DNA of 64,000 nt, from assembly GCA_045597805.1 (NCBI GenBank), contig JAZLKW010000062.1, positions 30,083 through 94,082 on the forward strand, in the 5' to 3' direction. Below the pieces are notes generated by a model. It saw only the letters and a list, made by a program, of their open reading frames with translations. It was not told the origin of the DNA and did not search any database. The position numbers were made by a program, and so were the translations under genes. Shown here one piece after another: positions 4,442 to 63,540 of this stretch. This stretch comes from Candidatus Avispirillum sp. Lineage in GTDB: Bacteria > Bacillota > Clostridia > Oscillospirales > CAG-272. How positions within the stretch are numbered: the first letter of the stretch is position 1; each line of letters begins with the position of its first letter.

Positions 4442-5075
4442 CCTTTCATTTGAAGAACAGTTCCGCCTTGCGGGCTATAAGATTATCTGCGGCACAGATG
4501 AGGCGGGCCGCGGTCCTTTAGCCGGTCCCGTTGTAGCTGGTGCCTGCATACTGCCGGAGGGTCTTGTTATCGAGGGTCTGGATGACTCCAAAAAACTCAC
4601 GGAAAAGAAACGCGAAAAGCTGTATGACGTAATTACAGAAAAAGCCCTCGCTTGGAGCGTCGCTCTGTCAACCCCCGAAGAGATAGACGAGATAAACATT
4701 TTAAACGCTTCCCTCCAGGCCATGCGCCGTGCCATTGACGGACTTTCCGTAAAGCCGGACTTCGTTCTGGTAGACGGAAACATCGACCGTGGATTTCAGA
4801 TCCCCGCCAAGGCAGTCGTCAGCGGAGACGCCATCTCGCAGTCCATCGCCGCCGCGTCTATCCTTGCCAAGGTGACAAGAGACAGGATGTGTGCGGAGCT
4901 TGACGAATTATACCCTCAGTACGGTTTTTCAAAGCACAAGGGATACCCGACGAAAGACCATAAGCTCGCAGTATACGAGTACGGTCCCAGTCCATGCCAC
5001 AGAAAATCATTCCTATCGTTCCTCGAGCGCGACCGTGAGAAGCTGGAAGAGGCTCTGAAAAAGAAAAATGGATAA
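4434..5075 (+). CDS. rnhB: ribonuclease HII
   Basis: GTDEAGRGPLAGPV, DDSKKL, IAAASILAKVTRD, HKGYPT. Confidence 0.97.
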   Translation: MLDLSFEEQFRLAGYKIICGTDEAGRGPLAGPVVAGACILPEGLVIEGLDDSKKLTEKKREKLYDVITEKALAWSVALSTPEEIDEINILNASLQAMRRAIDGLSVKPDFVLVDGNIDRGFQIPAKAVVSGDAISQSIAAASILAKVTRDRMCAELDELYPQYGFSKHKGYPTKDHKLAVYEYGPSPCHRKSFLSFLERDREKLEEALKKKNG

Positions 5076-45256: not shown

Positions 45257-45457
45257 AGATACTCCCCTTTCCCTCATTGTCTCAATTATAACCGCGGCGG
45301 GGCGATTTGTCAACAAAGACGTGCAGCAAAACAAAATGGAAAGGGGGCAGGGATTTCTCCCTGCCGCCACATTGTTTTGAAATAAGCAAATCGTTTTTTG
45401 TGATTATTGCGTTAAAGTTATGCGTTTGTTCTGAATCTGCATAAGTTCAACGGACTT

Positions 45458-46534: not shown

Positions 46535-46883
46535 TGCTTTCCCTTTCAAGCGCTGCTTTATTTCAACCATGCAATAACACATGCATACAGTTATTTCAAT
46601 ATTATTATGAAATTTTCAGGTATCCCCTTTTTCTGCCTCAATTATAATCGTGAAAGAGCGGTTTGTCAACAAAAACGTTCGGTATAAGAAAATCTAAAGG
46701 AGGCAGGGATTTTGATATAATCCCTGCCGCCTTTCCATTTTGAAAATATGTGTTTATTTACATATCGTTCACATTGTGGTATAATTAATTTAGTTAGGTG
46801 GTACTATGCTGATTTTTTCAGAAATGCAGCGAGAGAAAAGTGACAATAATGGTACACGTCACAAAATATACTATACACAACAT

Positions 46884-46998
46884 AAAAAGCACTCCGAAGA
46901 GTGCATTTAGAGGTGGAACAATTCAGAGGATACCACCATACCCCACGGCAATTACGCCTTATCTTAGAACTTGTTGATGGATATTGATAAACTTATAC
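46884..46998 (-). ncRNA. type II CRISPR tracrRNA (orphan)
   Basis: Minus strand: 24-nt perfect anti-repeat, bulge, CTAAGAT lower stem pairing GTTTTAG, AAGGC-GTAATT-GCC nexus, GGTGG/CCACC stem, GCACTC-TTCG-GAGTGC-TTTTT terminator. Confidence 0.85.
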
Positions 46999-47008
46999 GA
47001 AAATCAAT

Positions 47009-47108
47009 ATTTTATCTCTGATGGATATTGATAAACTTATACTATGGCATAAGGGACAAATCATTTCTTGAAGTTTTAGTTCTCTGATGGATATTGATAA
47101 ACTTATAC
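47009..47108 (+). CRISPR. type II-like mini-array: degenerate repeat, one 30-nt spacer, full 36-nt repeat
   Basis: Repeat GTTTTAGTTCTCTGATGGATATTGATAAACTTATAC (47073-47108); spacer TATGGCATAAGGGACAAATCATTTCTTGAA (47043-47072); 28-nt identical copy at 47015-47042. Confidence 0.85.
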
Positions 47109-47152
47109 GAAGTAACTTACAATAGCAAACAGTATCTGAAAATCCGAACAAC

Positions 47153-47193
47153 AAAACTGCGCTGCCGACCATACGGTCGGCAGCGCAGTTTTT
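47153..47193. terminator. strong bidirectional terminator downstream of the mini-array
   Basis: AAAACTGCGCTGCCGACC-ATAC-GGTCGGCAGCGCAGTTTT, 18-bp perfect stem. Confidence 0.85.
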
Positions 47194-47263: not shown

Positions 47264-47276
47264 TTATTCCCACTCG
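47264..47276. repeat. att core, distal copy
   Basis: TTATTCCCACTCG, identical to the guaA 3' end. Confidence 0.88.
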
Positions 47277-47420
47277 CTCCCGAAAACTGTGACTTAAACA
47301 ATTTTGTATGGGTATTTTTACTCATATTATCGGGAGTGTTCAGATTATCCATAAAATATGGACTGTCAAGATTTCTGTTGTCACTGTGTTGTCAGAGACT
47401 ATTACTATTATATCAAATAA

Positions 47421-48434
47421 TTATCTGTTTTCAATAGTTTGAGAAAAGATTTCCGCTTCAATCTGATTTGTTAACTCAGTAAGGTAAAAGTACAACTTGT
47501 CTTTTGCATCCGAGTAATTCATATTAAATGCTTTGTTTGTCAAACCTTTTAATACGTCATCATAAATCAAATCGCTTTCAGAAAGATACTGCCCTAAACC
47601 ATAATGTGCAAGACAATTCCTAAAGTTCCTATCCTTCATGGAATCATTGATGTAAAAGGTTGTTCCGTTTGCGGCATTTAACTCTTTGATAAAATCGCAA
47701 AGATAGTAATACTGCAGATATGCAAACTTGAACTTTTGCGGAATCTCCTCAACAAAGTATTGCTCTATAAACTCGATAGCATAATTGATACTGCACAGAA
47801 TTGAAAAAAGCAAAAAACCAAGATCTGTTTTAACTTTTAAAGGGCAATTCTTGTAAAAATGATAATCCTCGTATTTTACCAAAATATTATCATCATAATT
47901 ATATGGTGGGAAGTTTTGGCAATCGAAAAAGCCTGCAAGTTTTCCTGACACCACGCTAATATCTCTAATCCACGGACCGATTTCTTTGTTATTCAATGTA
48001 TCTACAGGAGTATACAGTGCGCACAAAATCGTGTTCCCACAAAAATGACCATTACACAGATCAGTACCCACATTGTAGTATCCCAATAGTTTTTCACGCA
48101 GCCGACGGATCTTATAAAAATAGTCATCGCTTGCCCCCAACTTCGTCATCAAAGCTGACAAGTAATCCGAATATGACATCTCATACAGTTTATGACTTTG
48201 ACGCAAGGTAGTGTAGTATGTTTTCTCTGTATCAGTAAACTGGGGCGCACCTAATCCAAGCTTTTGGCACCATTGTTCTGCTCCATCTGTAAACAGTCCG
48301 ATATACGGTTGACTCATCATAATATAGTTGCTGCTGATATTCTTCGCATTTCTTTGAATAACGGTCAGTGTGTAAAGAAACCGAGCATCAGCTTGTATTA
48401 ATTCATAAGCAGCTTTCTGAATAGCATTTAACAT
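47421..48434 (-). CDS. hypothetical protein with C-terminal HEPN-like motif
   Basis: 337 aa, AT-rich, helical; FRNCLAHY fits RxxxxH. Confidence 0.6.
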   Translation of the reverse strand: MLNAIQKAAYELIQADARFLYTLTVIQRNAKNISSNYIMMSQPYIGLFTDGAEQWCQKLGLGAPQFTDTEKTYYTTLRQSHKLYEMSYSDYLSALMTKLGASDDYFYKIRRLREKLLGYYNVGTDLCNGHFCGNTILCALYTPVDTLNNKEIGPWIRDISVVSGKLAGFFDCQNFPPYNYDDNILVKYEDYHFYKNCPLKVKTDLGFLLFSILCSINYAIEFIEQYFVEEIPQKFKFAYLQYYYLCDFIKELNAANGTTFYINDSMKDRNFRNCLAHYGLGQYLSESDLIYDDVLKGLTNKAFNMNYSDAKDKLYFYLTELTNQIEAEIFSQTIENR

Positions 48435-48600
48435 GTATAAACACCTCTTTTACGTTGCAATCACTTACGCACAATTTAGTTTAAAACCATTATACCATAA
48501 AACGAGAGATTTTTCTATATTTCAACTAAAAGGCGCCGCATTCCTGCGACGCCTTCATGATTTTGCGTTGTGAGATAAGTGTAGTTGATCCTTACTGTAT

Positions 48601-50430
48601 TTATTGCAAAGAAATCTTTGCAACTCTACTGAGTTTATCCAATACATAAACTTCATCAGCAGTTGAGGCTTTATCAAGTTTGAATTTGTTTATAACGGAA
48701 TTTCTTTTAACTCCTATATCTTTTAAGAATTGCAAAATTATGCTCACTATTGAAGCTCCTGCCCCTACAACCGGTATAAGTCCTGCGCCTCCTAGTGTGT
48801 AGTTAACAAAACTCTCTCCACTGATTTTTTCCTTGCCTATTTCGGCAATTAAATTATTATATTCCGATATTTTATTTCTCTGCTGCTCATCATCAAGTTC
48901 AGATAGGGTTTGCAATATTTTCTTTAATGTTATCGCTGTATTGTATTTGTCAGCATAATCCAACACATTTTTCAAAGAAATTAGATTATCTGATTTTAAC
49001 AAGTATATGCTCTTTCTCTCTTTTTCGAGCATTTGGCTATATGCATTAATACTTTGTTGCTGCTCATCGTGAGAATACTGATAAGCATTTATAACACTTC
49101 CAAGAATATTAGAAGCAGCAACATCAGAGTATATACCTTTTTCTCCACTGTTAGCAAAAGGAAAATATGTGGCTTGCAATGCAGTAGCTAAATGTATAGC
49201 ATTGGAATTTACTGTTAATTCAAATCCTATATCCTTACCTTCTTTGAAATCCTGTTGCAAATACTCAAATAAATTATTTGCACCTATGGCAGGTAGTTTT
49301 ATGGGACTATAACTTGTTAATAGTTCGTAGCTCTCTCGTTTTGCTTTGATAGGCCAAATCAACCAATCATAAAGGATCTTCAACTTTGGATCAGAACTCT
49401 TAATGCATTGCTCACAGATTGCTTCTAAAACATTTTCATTACCTTCCCAAAAGGATAAATATTTCTTCTCTAATTCACAATAAAACATTGCCATTAGAGC
49501 GTTTATTCCTCTTTTAGAAACAACAGCGTTATTTTTAATTTGATACAGCCTATCTATTACTTTTTTATCGTATCTGCTCTCAGTGTTTGGTAATAAAAGA
49601 ACTAATTTGTTTCTTGCAACCATTTCCTCAAGATCTTTTATTTCAAGATGTTGCTGTCGCAAAAACTCATCTATATGGCCGCCCAAAGGAAAAGAAATGT
49701 AAATAGTATCATATAACAAAGCATTGCTTCGAATACTGATATTTTCATTATTCCAAACGCTAAAATCCATATAACACTTGGTTTTACTGCTATCGAAATA
49801 TCTTAAAGTGTCTTTGCAAACTTCTCCGGAATAAATCTTTTCTACATTATCAAACCAAAATTCAGAGTCAGCTCTTGAAAAAGCAAAGTTTTTGTCCGTA
49901 CACGCCAATTCTGCAGTCTTATTACACAAAAAAACTTTGGTTGTAGAGTCTTTTTCGACGGTTACTGTTACAAATGCATTTTTTAATTCTTGCACAAACG
50001 TCCTTATTGCTGTTATATCTGTATCTTTGGTATCTTCAGATACAGTTATTATAATATTTGGACCATTATGATGTTCAACTCGAATGCCAACAAAATCAAC
50101 ATGGGGAAACCTACTAACCATCAAACTTTGAAACATTTCATTGGTTAAAAAAATTCCTTCGTTGTTATGTGCTATATTGGTTAGAGGTTCTACTTCTTCA
50201 ATAACGGTATTGGGCTCTTTTGATGTAAGTTCTACCCAATCACCTACGCTACGAATGTTATAATTAAAATCTTCTTTTATTGCATCAAACATATCCAAAA
50301 AACTTAATAATTGAATAACATAGTGGTTTTTCTCAATAAGAAAGATTTTTGTTTTTATTCCATAATACTTTGTTCTTAATCGTAAATCTGCTCGTTTAAC
50401 GCCTCCACAATCGTACAAAACATCCACCAT
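48601..50430 (-). CDS. hypothetical protein (609 aa)
   Basis: Long AT-rich ORF with RBS-like GTGGTGA; no motif recognised; hydrophobic Gly-rich segment near the C-terminus. Confidence 0.75.
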   Translation of the reverse strand: MVDVLYDCGGVKRADLRLRTKYYGIKTKIFLIEKNHYVIQLLSFLDMFDAIKEDFNYNIRSVGDWVELTSKEPNTVIEEVEPLTNIAHNNEGIFLTNEMFQSLMVSRFPHVDFVGIRVEHHNGPNIIITVSEDTKDTDITAIRTFVQELKNAFVTVTVEKDSTTKVFLCNKTAELACTDKNFAFSRADSEFWFDNVEKIYSGEVCKDTLRYFDSSKTKCYMDFSVWNNENISIRSNALLYDTIYISFPLGGHIDEFLRQQHLEIKDLEEMVARNKLVLLLPNTESRYDKKVIDRLYQIKNNAVVSKRGINALMAMFYCELEKKYLSFWEGNENVLEAICEQCIKSSDPKLKILYDWLIWPIKAKRESYELLTSYSPIKLPAIGANNLFEYLQQDFKEGKDIGFELTVNSNAIHLATALQATYFPFANSGEKGIYSDVAASNILGSVINAYQYSHDEQQQSINAYSQMLEKERKSIYLLKSDNLISLKNVLDYADKYNTAITLKKILQTLSELDDEQQRNKISEYNNLIAEIGKEKISGESFVNYTLGGAGLIPVVGAGASIVSIILQFLKDIGVKRNSVINKFKLDKASTADEVYVLDKLSRVAKISLQ

Positions 50431-50633
50431 AATTCAATCACCACTTTCATCTTTGGATTTGTTTGATTAAGCTTTTGAGTTTCGGAGTATTGTATTTGAA
50501 AACATTCCAAATACTAAAAGAAGTTTTTTATAGACTTTATTATAAGCGGCCTTTTAAATAGGGTTCAACACAATTATACCTCTTCTCAAACCAAGAAGGT
50601 TTATTCTTCCTCGGTTTCCTCTACCTTCTTTTC

Positions 50634-51497
50634 TTACTCTTTACGCTTCTCAATGACTTTATTTATAAACTCATCTTCCCTTAGGTTAACACCCTCATCC
50701 AGAAATCTTTCGCCATCTTCATTATAGAAGTCTTCGGAAATACCCGCCGCAACAAACAATTGCTTGAATTTCTTCTTTCTTTTTTCTGGGGTGGTGTTCC
50801 TAAAACTAAAAACGCTCGTTTCCTTTTCGGATTTAAGCAGTTTAAATAGACTGGTTTCAAGAAATCGATACTGGTCTATATCACGTAAAAGAATACCGTC
50901 AAGTTCCTCTACAAAATGAATTGTCATACTGATTAATGTTGCCGCTTCCTTAAAGGTAGGACATTCTCCATTGTTGAATCGTTCCAACATTTGATTAACA
51001 TCTAAATGGTATGTATTTGTAACCACATCGTCTTCTGGAATGTTTCTAAAATAATCAATAGATTCAGTCATCAACTTATTTTCTGCATCAAAATGAACAG
51101 AATTGTTACGCCAGCAAATAAGCAGATCTACATAGGCAAACTTGCTCACAGCTAATTCTGAATGATTATGAATTACACAATCAAACTTGTTGTATACACT
51201 ATGTTTTGTCTTTGCAATTTTAAGGCTTTCCTCCTCGTCATAAAGCCTCGGTTCACGATTGCAAAGTCTTAAATACATATCAAGATTATCAACAGTCCAC
51301 GCCAACGCCGATTTTATAGCATATTTCTTGCTTCTTACAACGGAGTTTGTTCTGTTCTGTGGATTCCACGTTGTTTTAAATGACTCTCGTTTTTCGGCGC
51401 CATCTTCAACGGCATCTAGACCGATCATTATTGTAATAAGAAAATGGTTGGCTTGCCCCATTTCTGTTTTAAATTTTCTAAATGCTCGACTGTTCAT
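50634..51497 (-). CDS. putative HEPN-domain ribonuclease
   Basis: 287 aa, helical; LICWRNNSVH fits RxxxxH; RBS TAGGAAG; family assignment rests on the motif only. Confidence 0.6.
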   Translation of the reverse strand: MNSRAFRKFKTEMGQANHFLITIMIGLDAVEDGAEKRESFKTTWNPQNRTNSVVRSKKYAIKSALAWTVDNLDMYLRLCNREPRLYDEEESLKIAKTKHSVYNKFDCVIHNHSELAVSKFAYVDLLICWRNNSVHFDAENKLMTESIDYFRNIPEDDVVTNTYHLDVNQMLERFNNGECPTFKEAATLISMTIHFVEELDGILLRDIDQYRFLETSLFKLLKSEKETSVFSFRNTTPEKRKKKFKQLFVAAGISEDFYNEDGERFLDEGVNLREDEFINKVIEKRKE

Positions 51498-51519
51498 ACT
51501 TTCTTCCTAACAAATAATT

Positions 51520-51612
51520 TGGGGCCCAAGACAGGAATCGAACCCGTTCTTCCTACTTTAAGAGTGATAATATCACCATAAAGGTAGGCGTTTTACCAAT
51601 CACCACTTGGGC
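51520..51612 (-). ncRNA. tRNA-like RNA with extended anticodon arm
   Basis: Acceptor GCCCAAG/CTTGGGC + C + CCA; T-arm ACGGG-TTCGATT-CCTGT; anticodon stem CCTAC/GTAGG enclosing 27 nt; weak D-arm with TGG. Confidence 0.75.
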
Positions 51613-51640
51613 ATATTTTAGAAACGTTGTTAACACATAT

Positions 51641-51669
51641 ATTATACCGTATTTGATCTTCAAATTCAA
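51641..51669 (-). promoter_or_regulatory. sigma-A promoter of the tRNA-like RNA/HEPN unit
   Basis: Minus strand TTGAAT-17 bp-TATAAT. Confidence 0.7.
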
Positions 51670-51743
51670 CAAAACCCCACAAAATGAAACACAATTTCTT
51701 AAAACCTCTTTATTTTTCTGAATGTTTATGGTAAAATATTGGG

Positions 51744-51888
51744 GCGACACAGTTTAATATGGCTCAAAGCAGGCATACTTTTGGTAAAAACGTATGCCTT
51801 GATGTCATATCCTGCTTTGGAGTGAACTGTGTCGCAACAGAAGTCAAGCTGCGTTTTTCGGTGCGTAGCTCCGGCTACGCACTTTTTT
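51744..51888 (+). ncRNA. candidate structured leader RNA or sRNA ending in an intrinsic terminator
   Basis: GCGACACAGTT/AACTGTGTCGC outer stem, CAAAGCAGG/CCTGCTTTG and AGGCATAC/GTATGCCT inner stems, GTGCGTAGC-TCCG-GCTACGCAC-TTTTTT; TGGTAAAAT extended -10 just upstream. Confidence 0.55.
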
Positions 51889-51907
51889 ATTATGAGGAGA
51901 GACGAAA

Positions 51908-53610
51908 ATGACGACAGAAAAGAATTTAACAGGTTATCCGTCTATTGATAAACCTTGGTTAAATATTATACCGAGGAAGAAATTAATGCGGAAACTCCAA
52001 AGTGCAGTATCTATGAAAAGATTTATGAAAACAATTTGCATTTTACGAATCAAACTGCACTATTGTTTTTTGGCAAGAAGATTACATATAAAAAGTTATT
52101 TGCTCAAATAGAGCGCACAGTAACAGCACTTGCGTCCTATGGTGTTATGAACGGTGACAATGTTGCCATTTGTATGCCCGCATTACCTGAAACGGTATAT
52201 ACGATTTTGGCACTAAACAAAATCGGAGCTAATGCAGTATTGCTTAATCCTTTGTTTGACGAGCAGCAATTATTAAATCGCATTAATGAAACCGAGGCTA
52301 AACTACTGTTTGTTGCTAATGAACTTTATGGAAGAATTGAAAACATTCTGCCAAACAAAAAAATTGAAACAATCATTTCTTGCCCTGCGGTTAACTCATT
52401 AGGTGCAGTAGTCAAGACCATCAAAAAAGTTAAGACTATAGCCAGCACAATTACTTGGGATAATTTTATTAAAAACAATAACTGCGTAGGAGTTAAAGTT
52501 CCTTCTTATGAACCCAACAAGCCCGCCTTGATGGTTTATTCGTCGGGTACAACCGGTCAATCAAAAGGTATCCAGTTGACGAATGATGGTGTTTTAACAC
52601 TACTTGTAGATGCCAAAAGCGTGTTTGTAGAAATGAAGCGACAAGACAGATATTTTGTGCAAATCCCGTTATGGTTTTCCACCGGATTGGTTGCAACACT
52701 GTTAACATCGCTTTACTATGGTTTAGTTGCTATTTTAGAGCCTTTGTATGACTTGTCCTTATTCAGTAAACACATAGTCAAATACAAACCTAACTATATG
52801 ATTACAGCTACAGGACTTGTTGATTATTTATATTATCAACAATATAATCATCTGTCATATAAGCACTTTAAGTGTTTGGCAATCGGTGGTGAATATGTAA
52901 CACCGCAGGCAGAAAAAAGGTTTAACAAATGGTTGGCTGACAATGGTAATAACATACCTTTGCAAAAAGGATATGGAATGTGTGAACTGGGTAGCATTGT
53001 GACTGCTGCTAGTGTACGTTACAATACTATCGGCTCGGCGGGCATCCCCACGCCGCATGTTGTAGTTTCTGCATTTAATGCAGAAACAAACGAGGAGTTG
53101 CGTTATGGGGAATGTGGCGAGATTCGTGTTTGTTCTCCGTGCAAAATGTTAGGATATTATAAAAATGAACAAGCAACCAACGACTTTTTCTACACCGATA
53201 AGGACGGAAACGTATGGGCTTGCACCGGAGATATGGGGTATGTTGCAGAAGACGGCAATGTTTATGTAGATGGTCGTATCAGCTCGTCTTATAAAAACAC
53301 TGCCGGCGAAACTATTTACCTGTTCGACATTGAACGTGCTATCTTGGCAGTTGAACAGGTCAGACAATGCAAGGTAGTTGTATCTAATATAAACGGTGAA
53401 AAGACTCATGTTGCTCATATTGTATTGACTGCAGATGCCAACCAGAAAACAACATTTAAAAGCATTAAGAAATATTGCTCAACTGCTCTTCCAGCAAACC
53501 ACATACCCACGCTGATCAAAATGTATGAATCCGCACTTCCTGTTGCTCCCTCTGGAAAACTAAATGTGAATATGATGGAGAAGGATACAGATGGATTGAT
53601 TAAAACATAA
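51908..53610 (+). pseudogene. class I adenylate-forming (acyl-CoA synthetase-like) enzyme, frameshifted at about codon 19
   Basis: RBS GAGGAG + MTTEKNLTGYPSIDKPWL continues in another frame as KYYTEEE; YSSGTTGQSKG, GYGMCE, TGDMG, PSGK motifs intact. Confidence 0.7.
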
Positions 53611-53653
53611 AAGCAACTACGTTTAAACAAAGAAAATCCAGGAGTGACTTACA

Positions 53654-54721
53654 ATGAAAGGCGGCACTAAAAAAATACCACCCACAAAAAGAATATCAAA
53701 AAAGCCAGAATTAAAAATTAATATTGATAATTGTTTGCTGATAGGAAATGGCTTAAATCGTTGCCTTTCTGCAGGTAGTATTTCTTGGGGAAATTTATTG
53801 CAAATAATCGCACAAGACCTTAATGTAGATTATTTTGAAAATAATCCAATGCCATTAGAGTTTGAGCGGATTATTAATTCACATCTTTCTCAAAAAGAGC
53901 CAAATGAAAGTTTGTATAAGTCATATACAAATATTAAATACAAAATAGCTGAGATAATGCAAAAATCAACCTTACCCTACAACGCCATTCATCGAAGCAT
54001 TCCACAAATGAAAAATATTCAAATAGGTGCAATTATGACGACCAACTATGATTACCTATTAGAATATGCTTTTGACCCCAAATATCGTTTCGACAAAAAT
54101 CTTGATGCCCATATGTACATACCAGAAAGCACTTACCAGGTAGATGGGATCGAATTTTATCACATTCACGGAATTATGGGAGATCCAAAATCCATTTGCC
54201 TCGGTTACAATCAATACATGTCTATTGTTTCGTGCTTAAAAAATGCTATAAGCAGAAAGACTGACAATTTAGGACAATCATTATTAATTAGACAAATTCT
54301 TTCAGGCGCAAGACAACCTACCGGTGCTTGGCCAGAGCGGTTTTTCTATTCAAATATAGCAATAATTGGGTTTGGACTCGACCAATGTGAGGCAGATATT
54401 TGGTGGTTGCTCTCATACAGAGCTTATCTCTATTACACTAATTCTTGGAATATGAGAGAACTAATAAAAAACAAAATCGTGTATTATCGCATAATTGATT
54501 GCACGAGAACCGAATACAAACATCCTTTAACAGATAGTTGGCATGTGGAAACATACGAATTAACCGAAGAAGAAAAAAGATTTAATAGCCTTCTTCGTAG
54601 TGAACATGTGGAAGTTAATTTATATGCATTACGAAACGGGAAAACATATGAGGATGCATATCAGAAAATTTTGTCAGACATTGATAAAAAAGGGATAAAA
54701 GAGTATGGTCAAGATATATAG
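53654..54721 (+). CDS. SIR2-like (SIR2_2/AbiH-type) domain protein
   Basis: LLIGNGLN, SWGNLL, MTTNYDYLLE, YHIHG, IIGFGLD. Confidence 0.75.
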   Translation: MKGGTKKIPPTKRISKKPELKINIDNCLLIGNGLNRCLSAGSISWGNLLQIIAQDLNVDYFENNPMPLEFERIINSHLSQKEPNESLYKSYTNIKYKIAEIMQKSTLPYNAIHRSIPQMKNIQIGAIMTTNYDYLLEYAFDPKYRFDKNLDAHMYIPESTYQVDGIEFYHIHGIMGDPKSICLGYNQYMSIVSCLKNAISRKTDNLGQSLLIRQILSGARQPTGAWPERFFYSNIAIIGFGLDQCEADIWWLLSYRAYLYYTNSWNMRELIKNKIVYYRIIDCTRTEYKHPLTDSWHVETYELTEEEKRFNSLLRSEHVEVNLYALRNGKTYEDAYQKILSDIDKKGIKEYGQDI

Positions 54722-54751
54722 AAGACCTGAATTATTACATCATACAAGCAT

Positions 54752-54788
54752 AAAAATCGAGGGCACATAAAGAGTGCCCTCGATTTTT
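54752..54788. terminator. bidirectional terminator
   Basis: AAAAATCGAGGGCAC...GTGCCCTCGATTTTT. Confidence 0.8.
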
Positions 54789-54790
54789 TG

Positions 54791-55165
54791 TTAGTATATT
54801 ATATCGTGATTTACGATTTCTGTGACTCTGCTGCGTATGTTATTCATACGAGCAACCCACTCCATTTGGTTGTCTGCCTTGAGCTTTTCTGTCACACCCT
54901 CACGCTCTGCCATCTGTTTTACGAGCCGAAAAAACATATCCTCAGCCTGCTTGTTTACATCGGCAAGGTGTCTGTTCAGTTCGCATTTTGCAAGCAAGGT
55001 CGTTTAAAAACCTTTGCGGTGCGCCTTGATATACTGCAAGTGCCGCTGTCCCCAAATGCCGACTTCGACCTGCTCTTCGGCGGGTAATGCAAGGTCGGGC
55101 AGATAGTAATCTCCCTGCAAGGTGTAGCTGATACCCGTTCTTTCGTCTGTGAAATGCTGTTTCAT
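54791..55165 (-). pseudogene. tnpV: TnpV family protein with in-frame TAA at codon 54
   Basis: AAGGAGG RBS, MKQHF..GISYTLQGDYYLPDL..IWGQRH..KGF*TTLL..EGVTEKLKADNQMEWVARMNNIR. Confidence 0.8.
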
Positions 55166-55186
55166 TTTGTTGTCCTCCTTGTAATT

Positions 55187-56347
55187 TTATCTTGAGCGTT
55201 CATCACGCCGTTTACCTTTATTTGCTCTTGCTTGTTCAAGCAGATTGTCAATCTGTCTACTGCCGAATACCTTTCGGAGCAGTTTATAATCACGCAGATC
55301 TTCACGGAGATATTCGTTTTCATTTTCCAAAGCCGCCACCCGATTTTTCAATCTCTCGTTGCTACTCGCAAGCGAGTGGTTGGCAGTGCGCCACCGTTCA
55401 AAATCGGTTCTCGCTTCAAAATACCGACTCAGAGTTTTAATAACAAGTGCATTTAATCGCTTTATCAACGGATCGACAAACTTGGTTTTATAACTCCGTG
55501 CCGACATCATTGCTGTAGGTTCGGGCAACTGATATTCAGGTTCATTTTCAAAATTTTGTGAGATTGTCGTGATAACCTTTGCGCTCTCGGTGAGGTTTTC
55601 AATCTGCTTTTCAAGGATATTTGCTTCGTCGGTTTTCTCTTTGACAACCGCATCCAACTCCGCCAATTCTCGCTGACGTTCCTGCAATTTATAATCGAGA
55701 ACATCGAGGTGCGGGCGTTCCATTCCTTTGTGCTCCCACTCAATTCCGTGCCGTTCCATAATGGCGGCAAGTTGTTCTTTTTCGGCTTGTATCCACCTTG
55801 CCCACTCGCTATCCTTCTTGTGAACGCCGACAAATCCTTGCGCCTTTAACGCTTGCTTGAGGGAAACTCTTGTTTCAAGTCCACGCTTGCCATCGGTCTT
55901 GATAAAGGGTACAAAGTCAATGTGCAGGTGGGGTGTTGCTTCATCCAAATGCAGGTGTGCCGAGAACACTCTGAGGTTGGGATTACGCTCGGCAAAGCCT
56001 TTCATATACTCGTCAAGTATCTCGGTGGCGAGCTTTCCGGTGTTGCTATCGACGGCAGTATTCTCCCAATCACCAATCTGCATTATGATTTCGTGGAACG
56101 GTTTTTCCTGCTTTCCGAAGCGTATTTTTTCGTAATAATCATCTATCATACGGTCGCCTCTCGTTTGCTTGGCATTGTATTTTTCAAGCGCTTCATCAAA
56201 CAATTCGTGGTAAACATCACGGATATTTTCATCACAGTAGGCAATGTTTTGGTGCGACCTTCCGGGGTCAACGTTGCCTGCGTGAAAGGTGCGATTGTTG
56301 TGTCTGAGTGAACCTTTTCCGACCATTCCGCTTATCGCTCTTTTCAA
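55187..56347 (-). CDS. MobV (Mob/Pre) relaxase
   Basis: HNNR motif I, HLHLDEATPHLHIDFVP HUH motif III, coiled-coil C-terminus; TTG start after AAGGAAG. Confidence 0.88.
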   Translation of the reverse strand: MKRAISGMVGKGSLRHNNRTFHAGNVDPGRSHQNIAYCDENIRDVYHELFDEALEKYNAKQTRGDRMIDDYYEKIRFGKQEKPFHEIIMQIGDWENTAVDSNTGKLATEILDEYMKGFAERNPNLRVFSAHLHLDEATPHLHIDFVPFIKTDGKRGLETRVSLKQALKAQGFVGVHKKDSEWARWIQAEKEQLAAIMERHGIEWEHKGMERPHLDVLDYKLQERQRELAELDAVVKEKTDEANILEKQIENLTESAKVITTISQNFENEPEYQLPEPTAMMSARSYKTKFVDPLIKRLNALVIKTLSRYFEARTDFERWRTANHSLASSNERLKNRVAALENENEYLREDLRDYKLLRKVFGSRQIDNLLEQARANKGKRRDERSR

Positions 56348-56385
56348 ATAATCACTTCCTTTTTCCTTCGCCGCCGTGTGGCGGG

Positions 56386-56415
56386 TTTTGTTACTTTTGT
56401 CAAAAGTAACGCAAA
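56386..56415. other. candidate oriT inverted repeat
   Basis: GTTACTTTTG-T-CAAAAGTAAC just upstream of the relaxase, the usual position for a MOBV oriT; nick site not identified. Confidence 0.45.
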
Positions 56416-56627
56416 AGCACTTTCGACAGCCTTCGTCTATCAAAAGGTGCCATTGCGCTCTCCGAGGGGGTTATGGGGCGTTGCCCCGTTGTCTGCGGAC
56501 AACACCCCAGCAGAGCTGCCCTTTGAAAAGGGCACCCTGCACCCCGCCTAAACTTGGTATTGGCATACCTTCCGAAAAAGAACATTGCATGATTGCGAAA
56601 GTCTCACACCTTTGCAATGTTGCAACC

Positions 56628-57599
56628 TTACAGGTCGCCATACTCTTTTTCGGGTAACTGCCAATACCACTGACTGCCTTCCTTCACAGACCGCACGTTC
56701 AGTGTTTTCTTTGCTTCGTCAAGCACTCGTTTGGAAATCCCCAAACTCTTTGCTTTTTGTAGCAAAGTCTGTTGCAGATACTTTCCATCGGAAAGGCAGT
56801 CAACGATAAGGCTTTCAGCCATATCGGATTTTTTCTCACGGCTGACGCCGCTGAGAAGATCGTCGATAGAGATATCGTAGTGGCCTAGCCAACGGAAACC
56901 GTTGGCTTCGCTCAGCTCAAAGGCGATAGGCTTGCCCTCCGGTGCGAGAGAAGATTTTTGATGTGCCGCCACTCGTATCTCCGGCTTGTCCTTTACTCTG
57001 CCGACAACAAGAACACTTCTTGCCGTTGCTTGAAAGTCCACCGAGCCAAGACCTCTGTAATTGGATTTGTTACCCTGCGCCTTGTTCAAGTGTCCCACAA
57101 GGATAATCGCACAACTGTACTTCTCTGCAATTCTGCCGAGCTGAGAAAGAATGGCACGGACTTCGTTTGCTCGGTTCATATCCACTCTTGCGCCGATATA
57201 GGCTTGCATCGGATCTAAGATAATCACCCGTGCGCCCGTTTCCGCAATCGCCTTTTCCACTCTCTCATCAAGCATCGTCAGCGCCGCTTCCGATTCGTCA
57301 ATCACTTTGATTTGCGAACAGTCTGCATCACCGACAAGAAGACGGGGCTTGATGGTATCACCAAGTCCATCTTCTGCGGTCTGATAGATCACCTTAATCG
57401 GCTCACGCTCGGTATCGTCGCAGGGGAGTTTTGCTCCCCTTGACAATAGCGCCGCCAATCGCAGTATAAGCGTTGTTTTTCCTTCGCCGCCGTCGCCGTG
57501 AATAATTGTCAGTTTCCCGAACGGGATATAGGGATACCACAACCACTCCACTTCTTCGACGGCAACTTCATCCATACTGATGATTTTTAATTCAGCCAT
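56628..57599 (-). CDS. AAA_25 / RepA-like ATPase (putative replicative helicase)
   Basis: VEWLWYPYIPFGKLT, GDGGEGKT, AEDG, IILDP, GHLNK. Confidence 0.88.
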   Translation of the reverse strand: MAELKIISMDEVAVEEVEWLWYPYIPFGKLTIIHGDGGEGKTTLILRLAALLSRGAKLPCDDTEREPIKVIYQTAEDGLGDTIKPRLLVGDADCSQIKVIDESEAALTMLDERVEKAIAETGARVIILDPMQAYIGARVDMNRANEVRAILSQLGRIAEKYSCAIILVGHLNKAQGNKSNYRGLGSVDFQATARSVLVVGRVKDKPEIRVAAHQKSSLAPEGKPIAFELSEANGFRWLGHYDISIDDLLSGVSREKKSDMAESLIVDCLSDGKYLQQTLLQKAKSLGISKRVLDEAKKTLNVRSVKEGSQWYWQLPEKEYGDL

Positions 57600-57745
57600 A
57601 GGCGTTACCTCCTTTTTTCAAATTCCTTCAAAACTATTGAAATTGGAGGGTTCTTCGGTTATAATATTTGCAGTACATTTTTGAGAAGGCTGCTCCGTAT
57701 CTGCGCCAACAGATACATTCGGGGCAGTCTTTTCCGTTATATTGG

Positions 57746-58072
57746 TCATTCAGATCCCTCCTTTAATCCATACAAGGTTTTGTTGATTTGGTCGATGATT
57801 TCAAGCAAGTCACCGCTGACGTTGCCGCCGCTTTCGATACGCTTCAGTTCATCAAGCACGGCGGCGAGTTCCACTTTGAGTGCCTTATACACTCTTGGAT
57901 TACCCTCCACGATAATTTCACGGTCGACACACTTGCGGTAGCAGTATTCCTGCTTTGTAAGTCCCGACAGCGCCACAATACGGTTTATCGTTTCGTGTTC
58001 TTCGGGCGATACCCGAAACCCTACGGTGATACATCTAAAGCGGTCGTGTTTGTCTAAATTCTTAGCTGACAT
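57746..58072 (-). CDS. MobC-like ribbon-helix-helix mobilization protein
   Basis: VGFRVSPEE..SGLTKQEY..VEGNPRVYKAL. Confidence 0.7.
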   Translation of the reverse strand: MSAKNLDKHDRFRCITVGFRVSPEEHETINRIVALSGLTKQEYCYRKCVDREIIVEGNPRVYKALKVELAAVLDELKRIESGGNVSGDLLEIIDQINKTLYGLKEGSE

Positions 58073-59162
58073 TTTGTGTTGGCTCCTTTCGGAAATTATT
58101 GAGCTTGTCTGCCATATCCGTCTGTGTGGACGGGAATAGATGAGCGTAGTTATAAGTGATATTGATGCTTTCGTGTCCTACACGGTCAGCAATCGCCACC
58201 GCCGAATATCCCATTTCAATTAAGAGGGAAATGTGGCTGTGTCGCAGATCGTGGATACGGATACGTTTAACCCCTGCTTCGTCTGCGCCCCTTGTCATTT
58301 CACGGTGCAAATAATTCTTTGTGATATTAAACACTCGATCGCTCTTTTGCAGACCGTAGAGCTTAGAAAGGTATTCCTTGATTTCCTCTATAAGAAAATC
58401 GGGCATCTTTATCACACGGTTGCTTTTCGGCGTTTTCGGTTCGGTAATTACATCCCTGCCGTCAATGCGCTGATAGGACTTAGTGATTGTGACCGTACCA
58501 CGCTCAAAATCGAAGTCACCGGCGGTCAATGCTAACAGCTCGCCTTCACGGATACCGCACCAATACAGCATTTCAAATGCGTAATAGGATACGGGTTTGT
58601 CCATTACCGCAAAGGCAAATTTCTGATATTCTTCTTGTGTCCAAAAGAGCATTTCACGGCTTCTTGCCTTGCCCATATTACCGACCTTAGCGGCGGGATT
58701 TTCTTTCAAGCCATAGAACTTAACGGCGTGATTGAAAATGGCGCTGAGCTGATTGTGGAGAGTTTTAAGATACACGGGAGAGTATTTCTTGCCGTTCTTA
58801 TCACAGCCCTTAATCATTTCGTTTTGCCAAGCAATAACGTCTCTCGGCTTAATATCGCTGATTTTACGTTTGCCGAAGTACGGCAGGATCTTCGTGCGGA
58901 TAATATGCTCTTTGGTCTGCCAAGTGTTTTCTTTAATGCGATTCTTCATATCCACCGTATAGGTTTCAATAAAACTCGCAAAGGTCATACTGAGGTCTGC
59001 CTGAGTTTTGTTCAAAAACTCACGTTCCCAAGCAAGTGCTTCACGCTTGGTCGGGAAGCCTCGCTTTGTGCTTTGCTTTCGATCTCCTTTCCAATCGGTT
59101 ACTCGGTAGTAAACCATCCAAGTGTTTGTTTTTTCATCTTTATAAACAGCCATTTTCATCAC
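58062..59162 (-). CDS. int: tyrosine integrase with N-terminal arm-binding domain
   Basis: KRGFPTKREA, GIREGELLAL, PKT, HDLRHSH, RVGH, Y..HL. Confidence 0.95.
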   Translation of the reverse strand: MMKMAVYKDEKTNTWMVYYRVTDWKGDRKQSTKRGFPTKREALAWEREFLNKTQADLSMTFASFIETYTVDMKNRIKENTWQTKEHIIRTKILPYFGKRKISDIKPRDVIAWQNEMIKGCDKNGKKYSPVYLKTLHNQLSAIFNHAVKFYGLKENPAAKVGNMGKARSREMLFWTQEEYQKFAFAVMDKPVSYYAFEMLYWCGIREGELLALTAGDFDFERGTVTITKSYQRIDGRDVITEPKTPKSNRVIKMPDFLIEEIKEYLSKLYGLQKSDRVFNITKNYLHREMTRGADEAGVKRIRIHDLRHSHISLLIEMGYSAVAIADRVGHESINITYNYAHLFPSTQTDMADKLNNFRKEPTQNVS

Positions 59163-59359
59163 TTCCTTTCCTTAACTTTGGCTGCATCATAGCAAGTCTT
59201 ATCTAAAAAGAATTGTTTGTTGACTTTCCCCGCCATTGTAAAAAATCCTTGTTCTTGCAGTTCGGCGTTCATTTTCCGAATCACCTTATAGGCGAATGAT
59301 TTGGAAATCTTGAGTGCCTTTGCAACATCGTCTGCGGTCATATAATAATCTTCAAACAT
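59159..59359 (-). CDS. excisionase-like HTH protein
   Basis: 66 aa MFEDYYMTADDVAKALKISKSFAYKVIRKMN, directly upstream of int; GGAGG RBS. Confidence 0.75.
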   Translation of the reverse strand: MFEDYYMTADDVAKALKISKSFAYKVIRKMNAELQEQGFFTMAGKVNKQFFLDKTCYDAAKVKERK

Positions 59360-59520
59360 TGCAGTACCTCCTTTCTTAGTTTTTTTGCGCTGTGTTTGGT
59401 TTTGCCGTTTTCCCCAAGTGTCGTTCCTGCCCCTGCTTTTCAGCGGCGTTTTCTCGCTCGCTTCCTTGCGGAAGGTCTTGGCGGAGTATCCCACTTGGAC
59501 GGTCGTTTAGTTGTAGCAAC

Positions 59521-59648
59521 TTAACTGTATTTGTTTAAGTTATCCTCATTATACTAAACATATTCCGTTAAGTCAAGTGGTTTTCGAGAAAATATTAAAC
59601 TTTTTTGTTTATATTATCTTGACAGAACTTAAACATTTGTGTTATACT
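59521..59648. promoter_or_regulatory. divergent promoters with palindromic operator-like sites
   Basis: Leftward TTGACT-17-TATAAT (59576-59548), rightward TTGACA-18-TATACT (59619-59648); four T(A/T)AAC-N6/7-GTT sites overlap them. Confidence 0.6.
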
Positions 59649-59683
59649 CAATGCAAAGCACATAAGTAAGGAGTGAAATTACT

Positions 59684-60181
59684 ATGGCAATTGGTGAAAG
59701 AATTAGATTTTTTCGTAACCTAAAAGGTATGACACAAAAGTTTCTTGGTGTAAAAGTCGGTTTTCCGGAGAAAACTGCCGACATCCGCTTGGCTCAGTAT
59801 GAGTCCGGCACAAGAACACCCAAATCAGATTTAACCGAAGCACTTGCCGATGCTTTGGGCGTTTCTACTATGGCATTGAACGTTCCTGATATTGATACGG
59901 ATCTCGGCTTTATGCATACCCTCTTTGCATTAGAGGATATTTACGGTTTAAAGATTGACAAGCTCGATGACGAGGTTTGTATCCGTCTTGATAAAAACAG
60001 AGGAACATCCTACATTTCTTTGCTTGAGCGTTTTTCCGCTTGGCAGAAAGAAGCGGAGAAGTATCGCAACGGTGAAATCAGCAAAGAGGAATATGACAGT
60101 TGGCGTTATACATATCCCGAAGTAGAGGTACAGCGTACAAGGGATGCTCTTGACGCAATGCGCGAAAACAACAAAGGATAA
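59684..60181 (+). CDS. XRE-family HTH repressor
   Basis: IGERIRFFRNLKGMTQ..LAQYESGTRTPK..LADALGV. Confidence 0.9.
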   Translation: MAIGERIRFFRNLKGMTQKFLGVKVGFPEKTADIRLAQYESGTRTPKSDLTEALADALGVSTMALNVPDIDTDLGFMHTLFALEDIYGLKIDKLDDEVCIRLDKNRGTSYISLLERFSAWQKEAEKYRNGEISKEEYDSWRYTYPEVEVQRTRDALDAMRENNKG

Positions 60182-60187
60182 TTCAAA

Positions 60188-61036
60188 ATGAAGAAATTAC
60201 ATTTATATGTAGCAGAAACAGACCATCCTCAAGGTGCAAAAACTGAAATTGTAATTAAAGACGAAATCACGCAGGAAGAACTCACGCAGTTAAACGCAGC
60301 TTTTCGGATATGTAGCCTCTATCACAGCATCACACAGATCAAAGACATTGTTGTTGAAAATGGTGAAAGCTTTAAACGCTTTATGAGTCCTCAAAATTTG
60401 CAAGAAATTAGAAAGCGGAATGTACCTCCTGAAAGAGCAATTACACTTGCAAATAAAGCTGTTCTAAATTACGCATCTTCAATCAAAACATATATTGATA
60501 TGGAAAAGCGCCTTTTGACTAAGCGGGCCTCAGAAAGCGCCTTAAAGTTGTTTGAAGATATGCAACACGCTTTTTACGATAAAAATATGGAGTATAGGTT
60601 TTGGGCGAATTTTAGAAACTACATTGTACACTGTGAATTTCCATATTCCATTTATCAAGAATCCGTTGAGAATGGTTGTAAAATAATCTGCACTAAAGAA
60701 CACTTGCTTCAGTTTGATAACTGGAAACACTCGAAGGCGGATATACAACAAATGGGAGAGCAAATTGATTTACCGTCGCTTGTTGATAATATGAGCGCAA
60801 TGATATATGCTTTTTACATTGATTTCTTTAGCCACTTTGCAAAAGACATTACTGATGGCATAGCTACCTACGGCGAATTTTGCAGAAAATATGATGTAAG
60901 AGTGCCTGTTATTTTCAAAATGAAAAATAGAGAACAGGTCGCCGGAAGTCATTTTCAACCTTTGCCTGTTAAAGAGCTTAGAGCATCTTTTGACATACTT
61001 AGGAGTAATCCGCATATTAAAATTGACATAAAATAA
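60188..61036 (+). CDS. hypothetical protein with HEPN-like motif
   Basis: 282 aa; FRNYIVH fits RxxxxH, preceded by helix VLNYASSIKTYID. Confidence 0.6.
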   Translation: MKKLHLYVAETDHPQGAKTEIVIKDEITQEELTQLNAAFRICSLYHSITQIKDIVVENGESFKRFMSPQNLQEIRKRNVPPERAITLANKAVLNYASSIKTYIDMEKRLLTKRASESALKLFEDMQHAFYDKNMEYRFWANFRNYIVHCEFPYSIYQESVENGCKIICTKEHLLQFDNWKHSKADIQQMGEQIDLPSLVDNMSAMIYAFYIDFFSHFAKDITDGIATYGEFCRKYDVRVPVIFKMKNREQVAGSHFQPLPVKELRASFDILRSNPHIKIDIK

Positions 61037-61161
61037 ATCAAGCACTCTCAAATGAACTTTAATGGTGCAAGTGTAATTATCATTATTGTACCGAAGCAGC
61101 ACATCAAGAGAATGAAGAATATCCCAAATTAGTTAACAACTTTGTATTAGGAGGTGATATT

Positions 61162-62334
61162 ATGGCACGTACCATTTTTTACTCTTGGCAAAATGATTTA
61201 GATTGCAAAACACATCGATATTTTATTGAAAAATGCTTAAAAAATGCATTGGTTGATTTAGAAAAAGATGCCGCCATATATATGAACTATGATCGTGATA
61301 CGAAAGGCATCAATGGTAGTCCTGATATCACTGCAACAATATTTGATAAAATCGACAAATGCGTTTTATTTGTTTGCGATGTAAGTATTGTTAATTCGAA
61401 TGCTGAAGGTCGTAAAATGCCAAACCCTAATGTTTTAGTTGAATTAGGGTACGCTGCAAGTAAACTCGGTTGGGATAGAATTATTTGCCTATTTGACGGA
61501 AATACAGGCGATATTGAAGACTTACCGTTTGATTTGCGTCAAAAAAGAGTGACACCCTTTTATCCGGATCGAAAAAATGAACTATCACGGGTAAGCAAAA
61601 TTTTGGACGTAAATATTGCGGATTTATATGTAAAAGGTCAATTGTTCAATCCGTTAAATGATTACATTAAGGGTAAAATCGACAGATCTATTTTGGGTAT
61701 TGTAAAACCTATGGCTAATTTGGTTTATGGTACTATATCGATGAGTGAGGGATTAGAACACGTTTCGCCTTTATTAAAATCTTCGCCTGAAGAAATCGAA
61801 AAAAATATTACTGACATTCACTTTCCAGCATTTGTTGCGTTAAATGATTTTGGCAAAGAAAATGCAAATCTTCAGGAAATATTAAAAGACCTATTTTCAT
61901 CTTCATATTTTCCGAAAGAGTGGAGTTATACTGTTTTAGAGTTAATCGATTGGATAAGAGAGTATAATTGGTTTATTTCAAAAAGAAATGAAAACTTTCC
62001 CTTTGAAAAGATCAATTCATCTCAATATGATAATCTTGCTGCAATTAGTGCAAAAGCAGTAAATTCCAACAATTCAAATAATTCTTTTTTGATTTTAGAA
62101 ACTATCAATAAAGATGGAAAGCGTTATGTTGATACTGATGGAGGTAAGGTGATTAACACAACCCACTATGCAACGGATAATGCGCCTTCATTGAGACATT
62201 GTTTATCTATTAAATCAGATAGCATTAAAACTTTGACAGACAAAATATACAAACTAATCATCATTTGCCAAAATTGGCTCGATGTTACCGACAGCGAGTT
62301 TATCTTAGACCCTGATTACTATGTGATTACATAA
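61162..62334 (+). CDS. protein with N-terminal TIR-like / nucleoside deoxyribosyltransferase-fold domain
   Basis: IFYSWQND, GSPDI..IFDKI, FVCDVS, PNPNVLVELGYA, LPFDL. Confidence 0.75.
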   Translation: MARTIFYSWQNDLDCKTHRYFIEKCLKNALVDLEKDAAIYMNYDRDTKGINGSPDITATIFDKIDKCVLFVCDVSIVNSNAEGRKMPNPNVLVELGYAASKLGWDRIICLFDGNTGDIEDLPFDLRQKRVTPFYPDRKNELSRVSKILDVNIADLYVKGQLFNPLNDYIKGKIDRSILGIVKPMANLVYGTISMSEGLEHVSPLLKSSPEEIEKNITDIHFPAFVALNDFGKENANLQEILKDLFSSSYFPKEWSYTVLELIDWIREYNWFISKRNENFPFEKINSSQYDNLAAISAKAVNSNNSNNSFLILETINKDGKRYVDTDGGKVINTTHYATDNAPSLRHCLSIKSDSIKTLTDKIYKLIIICQNWLDVTDSEFILDPDYYVIT

Positions 62335-62342
62335 GCAAAACA

Positions 62343-62386
62343 AAAAGAGCTAACAGACTTTGTAACAAAAATCTGTTAGCTCTTTT
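62343..62386. terminator. bidirectional terminator
   Basis: AAAAGAGCTAACAGA...TCTGTTAGCTCTTTT. Confidence 0.8.
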
Positions 62387-62484
62387 ATTTATGAATAATC
62401 TAAAATTGTTGTCAAAACGTTGTCACGAGGCTTTTTGAAACCTCGAAAACCCAGTGTTTATGCGGGTTTTCAGCGTTTTTGACT

Positions 62485-63465
62485 TTATTCCCACTCGATG
62501 GTTGCTACCGGCTTGGGTGAGAGGTCGTAGAGGACGCGGTTGACGCCCTTTACCTCGGAGAGGATCCTGTTGGTGATCTTTCCGAGAAGTGCGTAGGGGA
62601 TCTCCTCGATCGTTGCCGCTGTTGCATCTACGGAATTTACCGCACGGAGCACTACCGGCCACTCATATGTTCTCTTATTATCCTTGATTCCCGTTGATTT
62701 GAAATCGGGCACTATTGTGAAATACTGCCATACCTTGCCCTGAAGGCCTGCTGCGGCAAACTCCTCACGGAGGATCGCATCGGACTCTCTTACGGCTTCA
62801 AGGCGGTCACGGGTGATGGCTCCTACGCATCTGACTCCCAGACCGGGACCGGGGAAAGGCTGACGGTATACCATATTATCGGGAAGTCCGAGCGTTTTTC
62901 CGACAACTCTTACTTCGTCCTTATAAAGGAACTTAACGGGCTCTACCAGCTCGAAATTAAGATCCTCGGGAAGTCCGCCCACGTTATGATGGGCTTTTAC
63001 GCCGTCAGACTCCAGAATATCGGGATAAATCGTTCCCTGGGCGAGGAACTCGATGCCCTCCTGCTTTCTTGCTTCCTCGGCAAATACTTCGATAAACTCT
63101 TTGCCGATGATCTTTCTCTTCTGCTCGGGCTCTGCGACGCCTGCCAACTTATCAAGGAAGCGATCTACCGCATCAACATAGATGAGGTTTGCACCCAGCT
63201 CCTCACGGAATACCTTGATAACCTGCTCGGGCTCGCCCTTACGGAGAAGTCCGTGGTTTACGTGAACACACACGAGATTCGTTCCGATTGCTTTGATAAG
63301 AAGTGCCGCAACGACGGATGAATCTACACCGCCGGAAAGTGCAAGAAGAACTTTCTTATCTCCCACCTGTTTTTTGATTGCCTCGATCTGCTCTGCAATG
63401 AATTTTTCCGCCATTTCGGCATTGGTGATTCTCGCAAGAGACTCGGGACGCAGCTGTTTTTCCAT
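62485..63465 (-). CDS. guaA: GMP synthase, ATP-pyrophosphatase/C-terminal subunit only
   Basis: ALSGGVDSSV, QGTIYPD, HHNVGGLP, PFPGPGL, KPVATIEWE; no glutamine amidotransferase domain. Confidence 0.92.
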   Translation of the reverse strand: MEKQLRPESLARITNAEMAEKFIAEQIEAIKKQVGDKKVLLALSGGVDSSVVAALLIKAIGTNLVCVHVNHGLLRKGEPEQVIKVFREELGANLIYVDAVDRFLDKLAGVAEPEQKRKIIGKEFIEVFAEEARKQEGIEFLAQGTIYPDILESDGVKAHHNVGGLPEDLNFELVEPVKFLYKDEVRVVGKTLGLPDNMVYRQPFPGPGLGVRCVGAITRDRLEAVRESDAILREEFAAAGLQGKVWQYFTIVPDFKSTGIKDNKRTYEWPVVLRAVNSVDATAATIEEIPYALLGKITNRILSEVKGVNRVLYDLSPKPVATIEWE

Positions 63466-63540
63466 AATTTCCTCCGTGGTAGTCATATATTTTACAACAA
63501 AATATTTTACAACTACGCCCCCTAAAATGCAATAGTTTTT

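Follow-up and report, generated by a model that had tools for sequence, protein, structure and literature searches.

A tracrRNA and one-spacer array without cas genes in Candidatus Avispirillum: probable scar of a type II-C CRISPR-Cas9 locus whose intact relatives carry a second anti-repeat

Why does a bacterial chromosome carry a tracrRNA back-to-back with a one-spacer type II CRISPR array and no cas gene beside them? The locus lies in the window (the whole stretch of DNA analyzed, 64,000 nucleotides), which is part of a 196-kb contig (C62) of the Candidatus Avispirillum sp. genome G000 (1.74 Mb, 85 contigs, 78.5% complete). A preliminary description had offered two readings, either a clean deletion of the cas operon or a guide module made of RNA only, which would program or titrate some Cas9 encoded at another site. 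The features on which the analysis rests are as follows.

46757..46910, plus strand: promoter-like site (11/12), ribosome-binding site and 34-codon ORF that runs into the tracrRNA terminator (ORF read by eye)
46884..46998, minus strand: probable tracrRNA remnant with anti-repeat copy A, nexus, second stem and terminator, homologous to 46 distinct intact-type tracrRNA loci
46961-46998, minus strand: anti-repeat copy A, which pairs with the 36-nt repeat
46999..47008, no strand: native 10-nt linker between copies A and B, with a similar linker in intact loci
47009..47042, plus strand: hybrid (degenerate) repeat of 34 nt, its left part native copy B and its right end running into the array spacer
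47043..47072, plus strand: 30-nt spacer between the hybrid repeat and the 36-nt repeat
47073..47108, plus strand: terminal CRISPR repeat of 36 nt, the same as all 24 repeats of an intact locus in a relative (G039)
47153..47192, no strand: 18-bp hairpin with an A-tract before it and a T-tract after it (z -9.58)
47264..47276, other copy at 62485-62497, no strand: att-like direct repeat (13 nt) from the 3' end of guaA that forms the distal border of the neighboring island and is outside the putative scar

Sequence and pairing confirmed the anatomy given by the preliminary description, that is, a minus-strand tracrRNA with its anti-repeat at 46961-46998, a 24-bp stem, nexus, second stem and UUCG terminator, and, 10 nt away, a degenerate repeat, 30-nt spacer, 36-nt repeat and terminator (47009-47192). 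In the computed repeat:anti-repeat duplex (-40.2 kcal/mol), an internal loop separates a lower stem of 7 bp from a perfect upper stem of 24 bp. Beyond the anti-repeat, the tracrRNA continues through an AAGGC nexus hairpin and a second stem to the UUCG terminator and its T-tract, down to 46884; folded in isolation, this strand is no more stable than its shuffles (z -0.87). The hybrid repeat on the plus strand still pairs with the tracrRNA on paper (-34.3 kcal/mol). None of 200 shuffles was as stable as the 18-bp hairpin, which is predicted to be a bidirectional terminator at the array end. A near-consensus promoter at 46757 on the plus strand could read antisense through the tracrRNA into the spacer and repeat, and each repeat contains an extended -10-like word. 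The three repeat-type copies of this locus are the only ones in G000 (search at up to 8 mismatches), and Rfam held no model matching the module. Two other regions of G000 (C49 at ~4150-4550 and C80 at ~4200-4450) were rejected as CRISPR arrays; they are 69-nt coding tandem repeats, presumably of the leucine-rich-repeat type.

The reported absence of cas genes also held for the assembly. Neither TIGR01865 nor PF01867 matched in G000, and profiles for Cas9, Cas1 and Cas2, each built from 25 close relatives, found no match in this 78.5%-complete genome. In addition, the 250 nt upstream of the nexus contained no sigma70 site of at least 9/12 on the tracrRNA strand, and the remnant is without the promoter and 5' extension seen in intact relatives.

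The preliminary description had proposed searching relatives for cas9 and this repeat. One of 100 relatives, the same-family genome G039, matched both the tracrRNA and the repeat, and it carries an intact locus. Its order is a minus-strand tracrRNA, 11 nt, a repeat-like copy B, a divergent promoter, cas9 (1124 aa), cas1, cas2, leader and array. The array has a 39-nt leader and 24 repeats identical to that of the window, and it closes, as in the window, with a short trailer and hairpin; there is no csn2. The proteins match TIGR01865, TIGR03639 (cas1_NMENI) and TIGR01573, and gene content and family matches together identify the locus as type II-C. Since copy B stands beside the G039 tracrRNA, the degenerate repeat of the window is native to the tracrRNA locus.

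The same arrangement recurs well beyond this family. The 18-nt core of the repeat was present in 6 of 400 family genomes. Scans with a tracrRNA motif made of copy A and the nexus only, with copy B not in the patterns, returned 21 metagenome loci and, in a species-level genome scan, 50 genome loci. Five chance matches (L087, L118, L121, L127 and L133) and a locus cut by a contig end (L107) were left out of the latter, as were two loci cut by contig ends (L074 and L078) of the former; one further contig (L085) held no tracrRNA. Together with the family loci, the scans gave 63 intact-type loci, of which 46 were distinct at 90% identity, and 36 of these had the array in view and were used for repeat comparisons. 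Named records among the scanned loci include Ruminococcus, Gemmiger, Acetobacterium, Anaerovibrio, Phascolarctobacterium and Synergistaceae, among others. The fetched stretches contained cas9 in 45 loci, cas1 in 35 and cas2 in 37, and the one locus without a visible cas9 stops at a contig edge. The best solved relatives of the intact relative's Cas9 are Cas9s of 1082-1095 aa such as 8jtj, 8uza and 6jdq (E 1e-66 to 1e-59), II-C enzymes from Geobacillus and Neisseria. In intact relatives the array comes after cas2 and is read in the sense of the crRNA, preceded by a short leader that contains a promoter-like site. Three loci (L063, L082 and L097) have cas9, cas2 and an array ~3.7-3.8 kb from the tracrRNA but lack cas1, a partial loss of the adaptation module.

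Copy B was found between the tracrRNA and cas9 in all 46 distinct loci, in the same orientation as the array. The degenerate repeat is thus a conserved part of the tracrRNA locus instead of a decayed array end, as it had been described. Each locus has two anti-repeat copies, mostly 36-61 nt apart, joined by a linker that usually contains a CAAT-like motif. Their longest perfect matches to the array repeat are similar (medians of 21 nt for copy B and 22 nt for copy A, n = 36). A sigma70 site of at least 10/12 was present on the tracrRNA strand of 46/46 intact-type loci, versus 0/6 loci that have the form of the window.

These six loci, the window and five others, are very probably inactive scars of type II-C loci whose own cas genes were deleted by recombination between two repeat copies; for the window, this is the conclusion that we hold with high confidence. 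The clean cas-operon deletion suggested earlier is supported by the existence of intact relatives with an identical repeat and of five further scars of the same form. The latter stand in differing gene contexts, and their tracrRNA segments are 72-84% identical to one another; three (L068, L124 and L134) went via copy B and two (L116 and L130) via copy A, the anti-repeat itself. They retain 1 to 5 spacers, unrelated among scars. In two of them (L134 and L068), the left side of the hybrid repeat matches the copy B of an intact relative of 93-94% identity, and the right end matches the array repeat. Scars made up 4 of 44 informative loci in the genome scan and 1 of 19 in the metagenome scan.

In the proposed mechanism, copy B would recombine with the penultimate array repeat, or with any other repeat if the array then collapsed, and ~4.7 kb with cas9-cas1-cas2, the leader and the tracrRNA promoter would be looped out. 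The event would leave the tracrRNA body, a hybrid repeat, the last spacer, the last repeat and the terminator, which is the arrangement of the window. The 30-nt spacer would then be the last (oldest) one of the lost array. Of the hybrid repeat, 28 nt are identical to the array repeat, and on the left it resembles the copy B found in intact loci; we infer a crossover point within 47015-47042, with a resolution no finer than 28 nt. The cas-loss junction therefore falls inside the degenerate repeat and not at 46999-47008, where it had been placed. A remnant of this kind, with neither Cas9 nor its own promoter, would do nothing.

A mis-assembly could produce the same form if copy B had been joined to an array repeat through the 28 common bases, with the piece carrying cas9-cas1-cas2 and the array left unbinned. 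The junction does lie inside a repeat, G000 is fragmented into 85 contigs, and no record among eight DNA sequencing runs spans the junction, with the nearest piece ending at 46990. We nonetheless regard an artefact as very improbable. The window is inside a 196-kb contig, and the same form occurs in an isolate assembly (L134, Faecalibacterium sp. An122), where no Cas9 was found in the whole assembly, an absence that a mis-join would leave unexplained. Another scar (L068) shows the decay expected after loss of function, in that, read by eye, its terminal tracrRNA hairpin is apparently missing and its last repeat degraded. Mis-binning of C62 was rejected, its tetranucleotide correlation (0.93) being the median of the other contigs. 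A read piece from another sample (X6) matched 46840-46990 without differences, which confirms the tracrRNA at this site; two other pieces (X4 and X8) diverge from the window at 46712 and may represent another strain or the paralogous hairpin. Stretches that these pieces leave uncovered count neither for nor against the junction.

The other reading takes the locus for a working cassette of RNAs only, which would program or titrate a Cas9 from the unassembled part of the genome or from a visiting element; it found little support. In its favor, the intact tracrRNA body can still pair with the intact repeat, possible plus-strand promoters such as that at 46757 and the -10-like words of the repeats could transcribe the spacer-repeat, 21% of G000 is missing, and a Cas9 occurs in one of the 31 genomes from the same genus, although its repeat did not turn up in the stretch that was fetched. 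Against this, no Cas9 was found in any of five scar genomes searched, namely G000, three MAGs of unreported completeness and the isolate assembly, while a positive control (G149) matched. No compatible Cas9 with a tracrRNA for use in trans was found elsewhere in the 78.5%-complete G000. The tracrRNA promoter is gone in 6/6 scars, and the spacers differ between scars and vary in number, so that there is no conserved guide. Comparison of the window spacer with phage, plasmid and host sequences, as had been suggested, gave no target: it has no self-target in G000 at up to 6 mismatches, BLAST against phages and plasmids returned chance matches only (E 2-8), and its 3' 22 nt had no exact match in viral contigs. 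The module itself was absent from the phages and plasmids searched, and its single match in viral contigs was judged to be chance. Taken with these results, the idea of an RNA-only module is extremely improbable. A viral single-guide RNA or RNA anti-CRISPR was likewise rejected, with no copy in the phage and plasmid collections searched and a locus outside the att-bounded island.

The left neighbor of the locus is a BNR-repeat gene, and to the right the att-like repeat at 47264 is 71 nt beyond the 18-bp hairpin, in agreement with a placement ~70 bp from att and just outside the guaA island. A comparison of the syntenic site had also been proposed earlier. In the same-genus genome G008 the BNR gene is 95% identical, and only ~35 nt, free of CRISPR DNA, separate the upstream hairpin from the att site; no cas9-containing allele was seen in the window's own species. 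Because the G008 site is empty, the CRISPR DNA is part of a ~530-bp insert at this junction, and the promoter and 34-codon ORF at 46757..46910 belong to the same insert. An intergenic hairpin element is present twice here (45278-45368 and 46634-46731, 74% identical) and also twice in G008.

The adjoining island (47264-62497) is of low GC content, lies between the 13-nt guaA-end repeats and encodes a tyrosine integrase and excisionase-like, NikA-like, Mob_Pre, AAA_25 and HTH proteins. Two of its products look like defense cargo, one SIR2/ThsA-like (53654-54721) and the other weakly TIR-like (61162-62334). On the minus strand of the island, an odd tRNA-like gene (51523-51612, Rfam 39.3 bits) has ~20 extra bases in the anticodon arm and is divergent from a plus-strand pair (51955-54721), in which the gene for an AMP-binding ligase precedes the SIR2-like one. 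Three minus-strand ORFs of 337, 609 and 287 aa (47421-51497) had no Pfam, NCBIfam or PADLOC matches. The guaA gene itself (62485-63486, minus strand) consists of the C-terminal part of GMP synthase only (333 aa).

If copy B is a liability, why is it kept in every intact-type locus? The tracrRNA strand of these loci reads from a near-consensus -35/-10 through a mimic of the repeat 5' half, anti-repeat B (upper part only), the linker and anti-repeat A to the nexus. The gap between the -10 and the mimic is 8-10 nt in 40 of 45 measured loci. At the usual spacing between promoter and start site, the long tracrRNA is predicted to begin 0-3 nt before the equivalent of the first base of the repeat, and consequently to have no guide. 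A search of the upstream 10 nt in 46 loci for an ~11-nt guide against the cas9 promoter gave no perfect match, and one-mismatch 10-nt matches were scattered (6/46). In one locus (L110:5520-5627) the mimic is nearly identical to the first half of the actual repeat, which suggests that it arose from a sense-oriented repeat on the tracrRNA strand.

Folding of single sequences paired the mimic with the tracrRNA lower stem at a probability above 0.5 in 40/46 loci versus 16/460 shuffled controls. In the alignment, 89.5% of cells in the fold-back helix, which was named by the analyst, were paired, a value reached in 1 of 500 shuffles; 16 cells carried two-sided changes, mostly at one pair. For these statistics the loci are related, the controls keep that relatedness, and the 3' side of the lower stem is fixed by the search pattern. 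RNAalifold gave no consensus (0 pairs) from a gappy alignment of the 46 long tracrRNA sequences. Given this null result, the pattern-fixed 3' side and the related loci, the predicted folding of the 5' end onto the anti-repeat lower stem has support but not proof.

Copy B also varies along with the array repeat. Its departures from a perfect anti-repeat comprise 45 that give G-U pairs on the tracrRNA strand, 3 that do so on the plus strand and 8 others; 25 of the 45 are at one position, and counted as distinct position-change types the ratio is 10:3:7. The true copy A shows the same bias (20:4:19). Predicted net binding of the repeat has medians of -26.1 kcal/mol for copy B and -29.7 kcal/mol for copy A, and copy B was rejected as the thermodynamically preferred site, being stronger than the full copy A in only 7/36 loci. 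It is predicted to be bindable while the fold-back holds.

Copy B may be kept as part of the long tracrRNA, whose 5' end would fold back and in which both anti-repeats could bind pre-crRNA. The closed RNA could hold Cas9 without a target until it is opened or trimmed through pre-crRNA pairing and RNase III, and the level of active tracrRNA would then follow the supply of crRNA. The price would be a built-in hot spot for deletion. We propose tentatively, and at somewhat less than an even chance, that in a II-C clade of Clostridia, Negativicutes and others a strongly transcribed, guide-less natural single-guide RNA parks Cas9 without a target, that two anti-repeats in its loop sense pre-crRNA, and that the extra one leads the locus to excise itself in about one in ten lineages, with scars such as that of the window as the result. 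If so, pairing at the extra site and cleavage by RNase III would release the active tracrRNA, and both the activity of Cas9 and the acquisition of spacers would depend on how much crRNA is supplied.

Copy B might instead be kept as DNA, either as the cas9 promoter, through the extended -10-like word TGATAAACT on its plus strand, or because gene conversion with the array regenerates it as a by-product. The II-C arrays of Neisseria are known to have promoters embedded in their repeats, no other conserved plus-strand cas9 promoter was found in the intact loci, and the word GATAAACT is retained in four of them (L063, L066, L099 and L103) despite drift of the array repeat. The changes in copy B favor G-U pairs on the tracrRNA strand, with the bias of copy A, which argues against this explanation, and we consider it rather unlikely as the sole reason for retention; the two roles are not mutually exclusive.

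Compared with known systems, the window has the 36-nt repeat, ~30-nt spacer and pairing tracrRNA (lower stem, upper stem and nexus) of type II-C CRISPR-Cas9, the cas9-cas1-cas2 form without csn2 or cas4. It differs in having no cas gene, leader or tracrRNA promoter, and its locus is probably not a functional system of this kind, as cas9, cas1 and cas2 were found neither there nor elsewhere in the 78.5%-complete G000. Orphan arrays of the Enterococcus faecalis CRISPR2 type, which likewise lack adjoining cas genes, are conserved loci usable by a Cas9 from another locus. In contrast, the window locus is sporadic, keeps a promoterless tracrRNA body and has no compatible Cas9 in its assembly. The scar itself adds one more case of an event that recurs, and we found no description of a deletion route via copy B in the open-access literature. 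It provides one concrete, repeatable route to single-step loss of CRISPR-Cas9 in bacteria, and an orphan tracrRNA plus mini-array is not necessarily a trans-acting module.

Copy B can be likened to the standalone repeat units of type II loci, also extra repeat-like copies inside the locus, which one study says could contribute to recombination while judging most of them spurious and functionless (10.1101/2023.03.03.530964). Unlike these, copy B has a fixed place in 46/46 loci and changes in step with the array repeat. A further likeness is to scaRNAs and viral single-guide RNAs, in that repeat-like sequence lies near the 5' region of cas9 in intact relatives. According to a 2026 catalogue, which describes scaRNAs and extends tracr-L to II-C, viral single-guide RNAs inhibit mainly by sequestering Cas9 (10.64898/2026.06.01.729453); by analogy, this might be a role for a guide-less fold-back RNA. 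Copy B differs from both, because on the plus strand its lower-stem part is not conserved (by eye), its wobble bias points to the tracrRNA strand, and it is not on phages; a scaRNA reading was rejected on the first two grounds.

A further comparison is with tracr-L of Streptococcus pyogenes and its II-A and II-C relatives. The S. pyogenes form folds as a single guide that represses the cas promoter (10.1101/2023.10.22.562561) through an 11-bp guide duplex (10.1101/2023.03.03.530964). Our intact relatives share a 5' extension that mimics the repeat lower stem and a predicted single-guide-like fold-back; they differ in that tracr-L has a guide of ~11 nt against the cas9 promoter, whereas here none was found and a second anti-repeat is part of the loop. 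The long tracrRNA is therefore tracr-L-like in its predicted fold and not in its guide. The tracr-L filter of the 2026 catalogue demanded a target match of 11 nt and would have removed guide-less RNAs (10.64898/2026.06.01.729453), and any search demanding a promoter target would miss them; we found no description of a tandem guide-less tracrRNA in the open-access literature. RNA-free Cas9 is reported to stimulate acquisition in II-C systems (PMC12477760), and the proposed RNA would bear on how these systems set the RNA-free pool for spacer acquisition as well as on the choice of tracrRNA boundaries when Cas9s of this group (~1050-1200 aa) serve as tools. A guide-less RNA with two anti-repeats would control Cas9 in a different way from tracr-L, which acts through a short DNA-targeting guide, and this would matter more than the scar that led to it.
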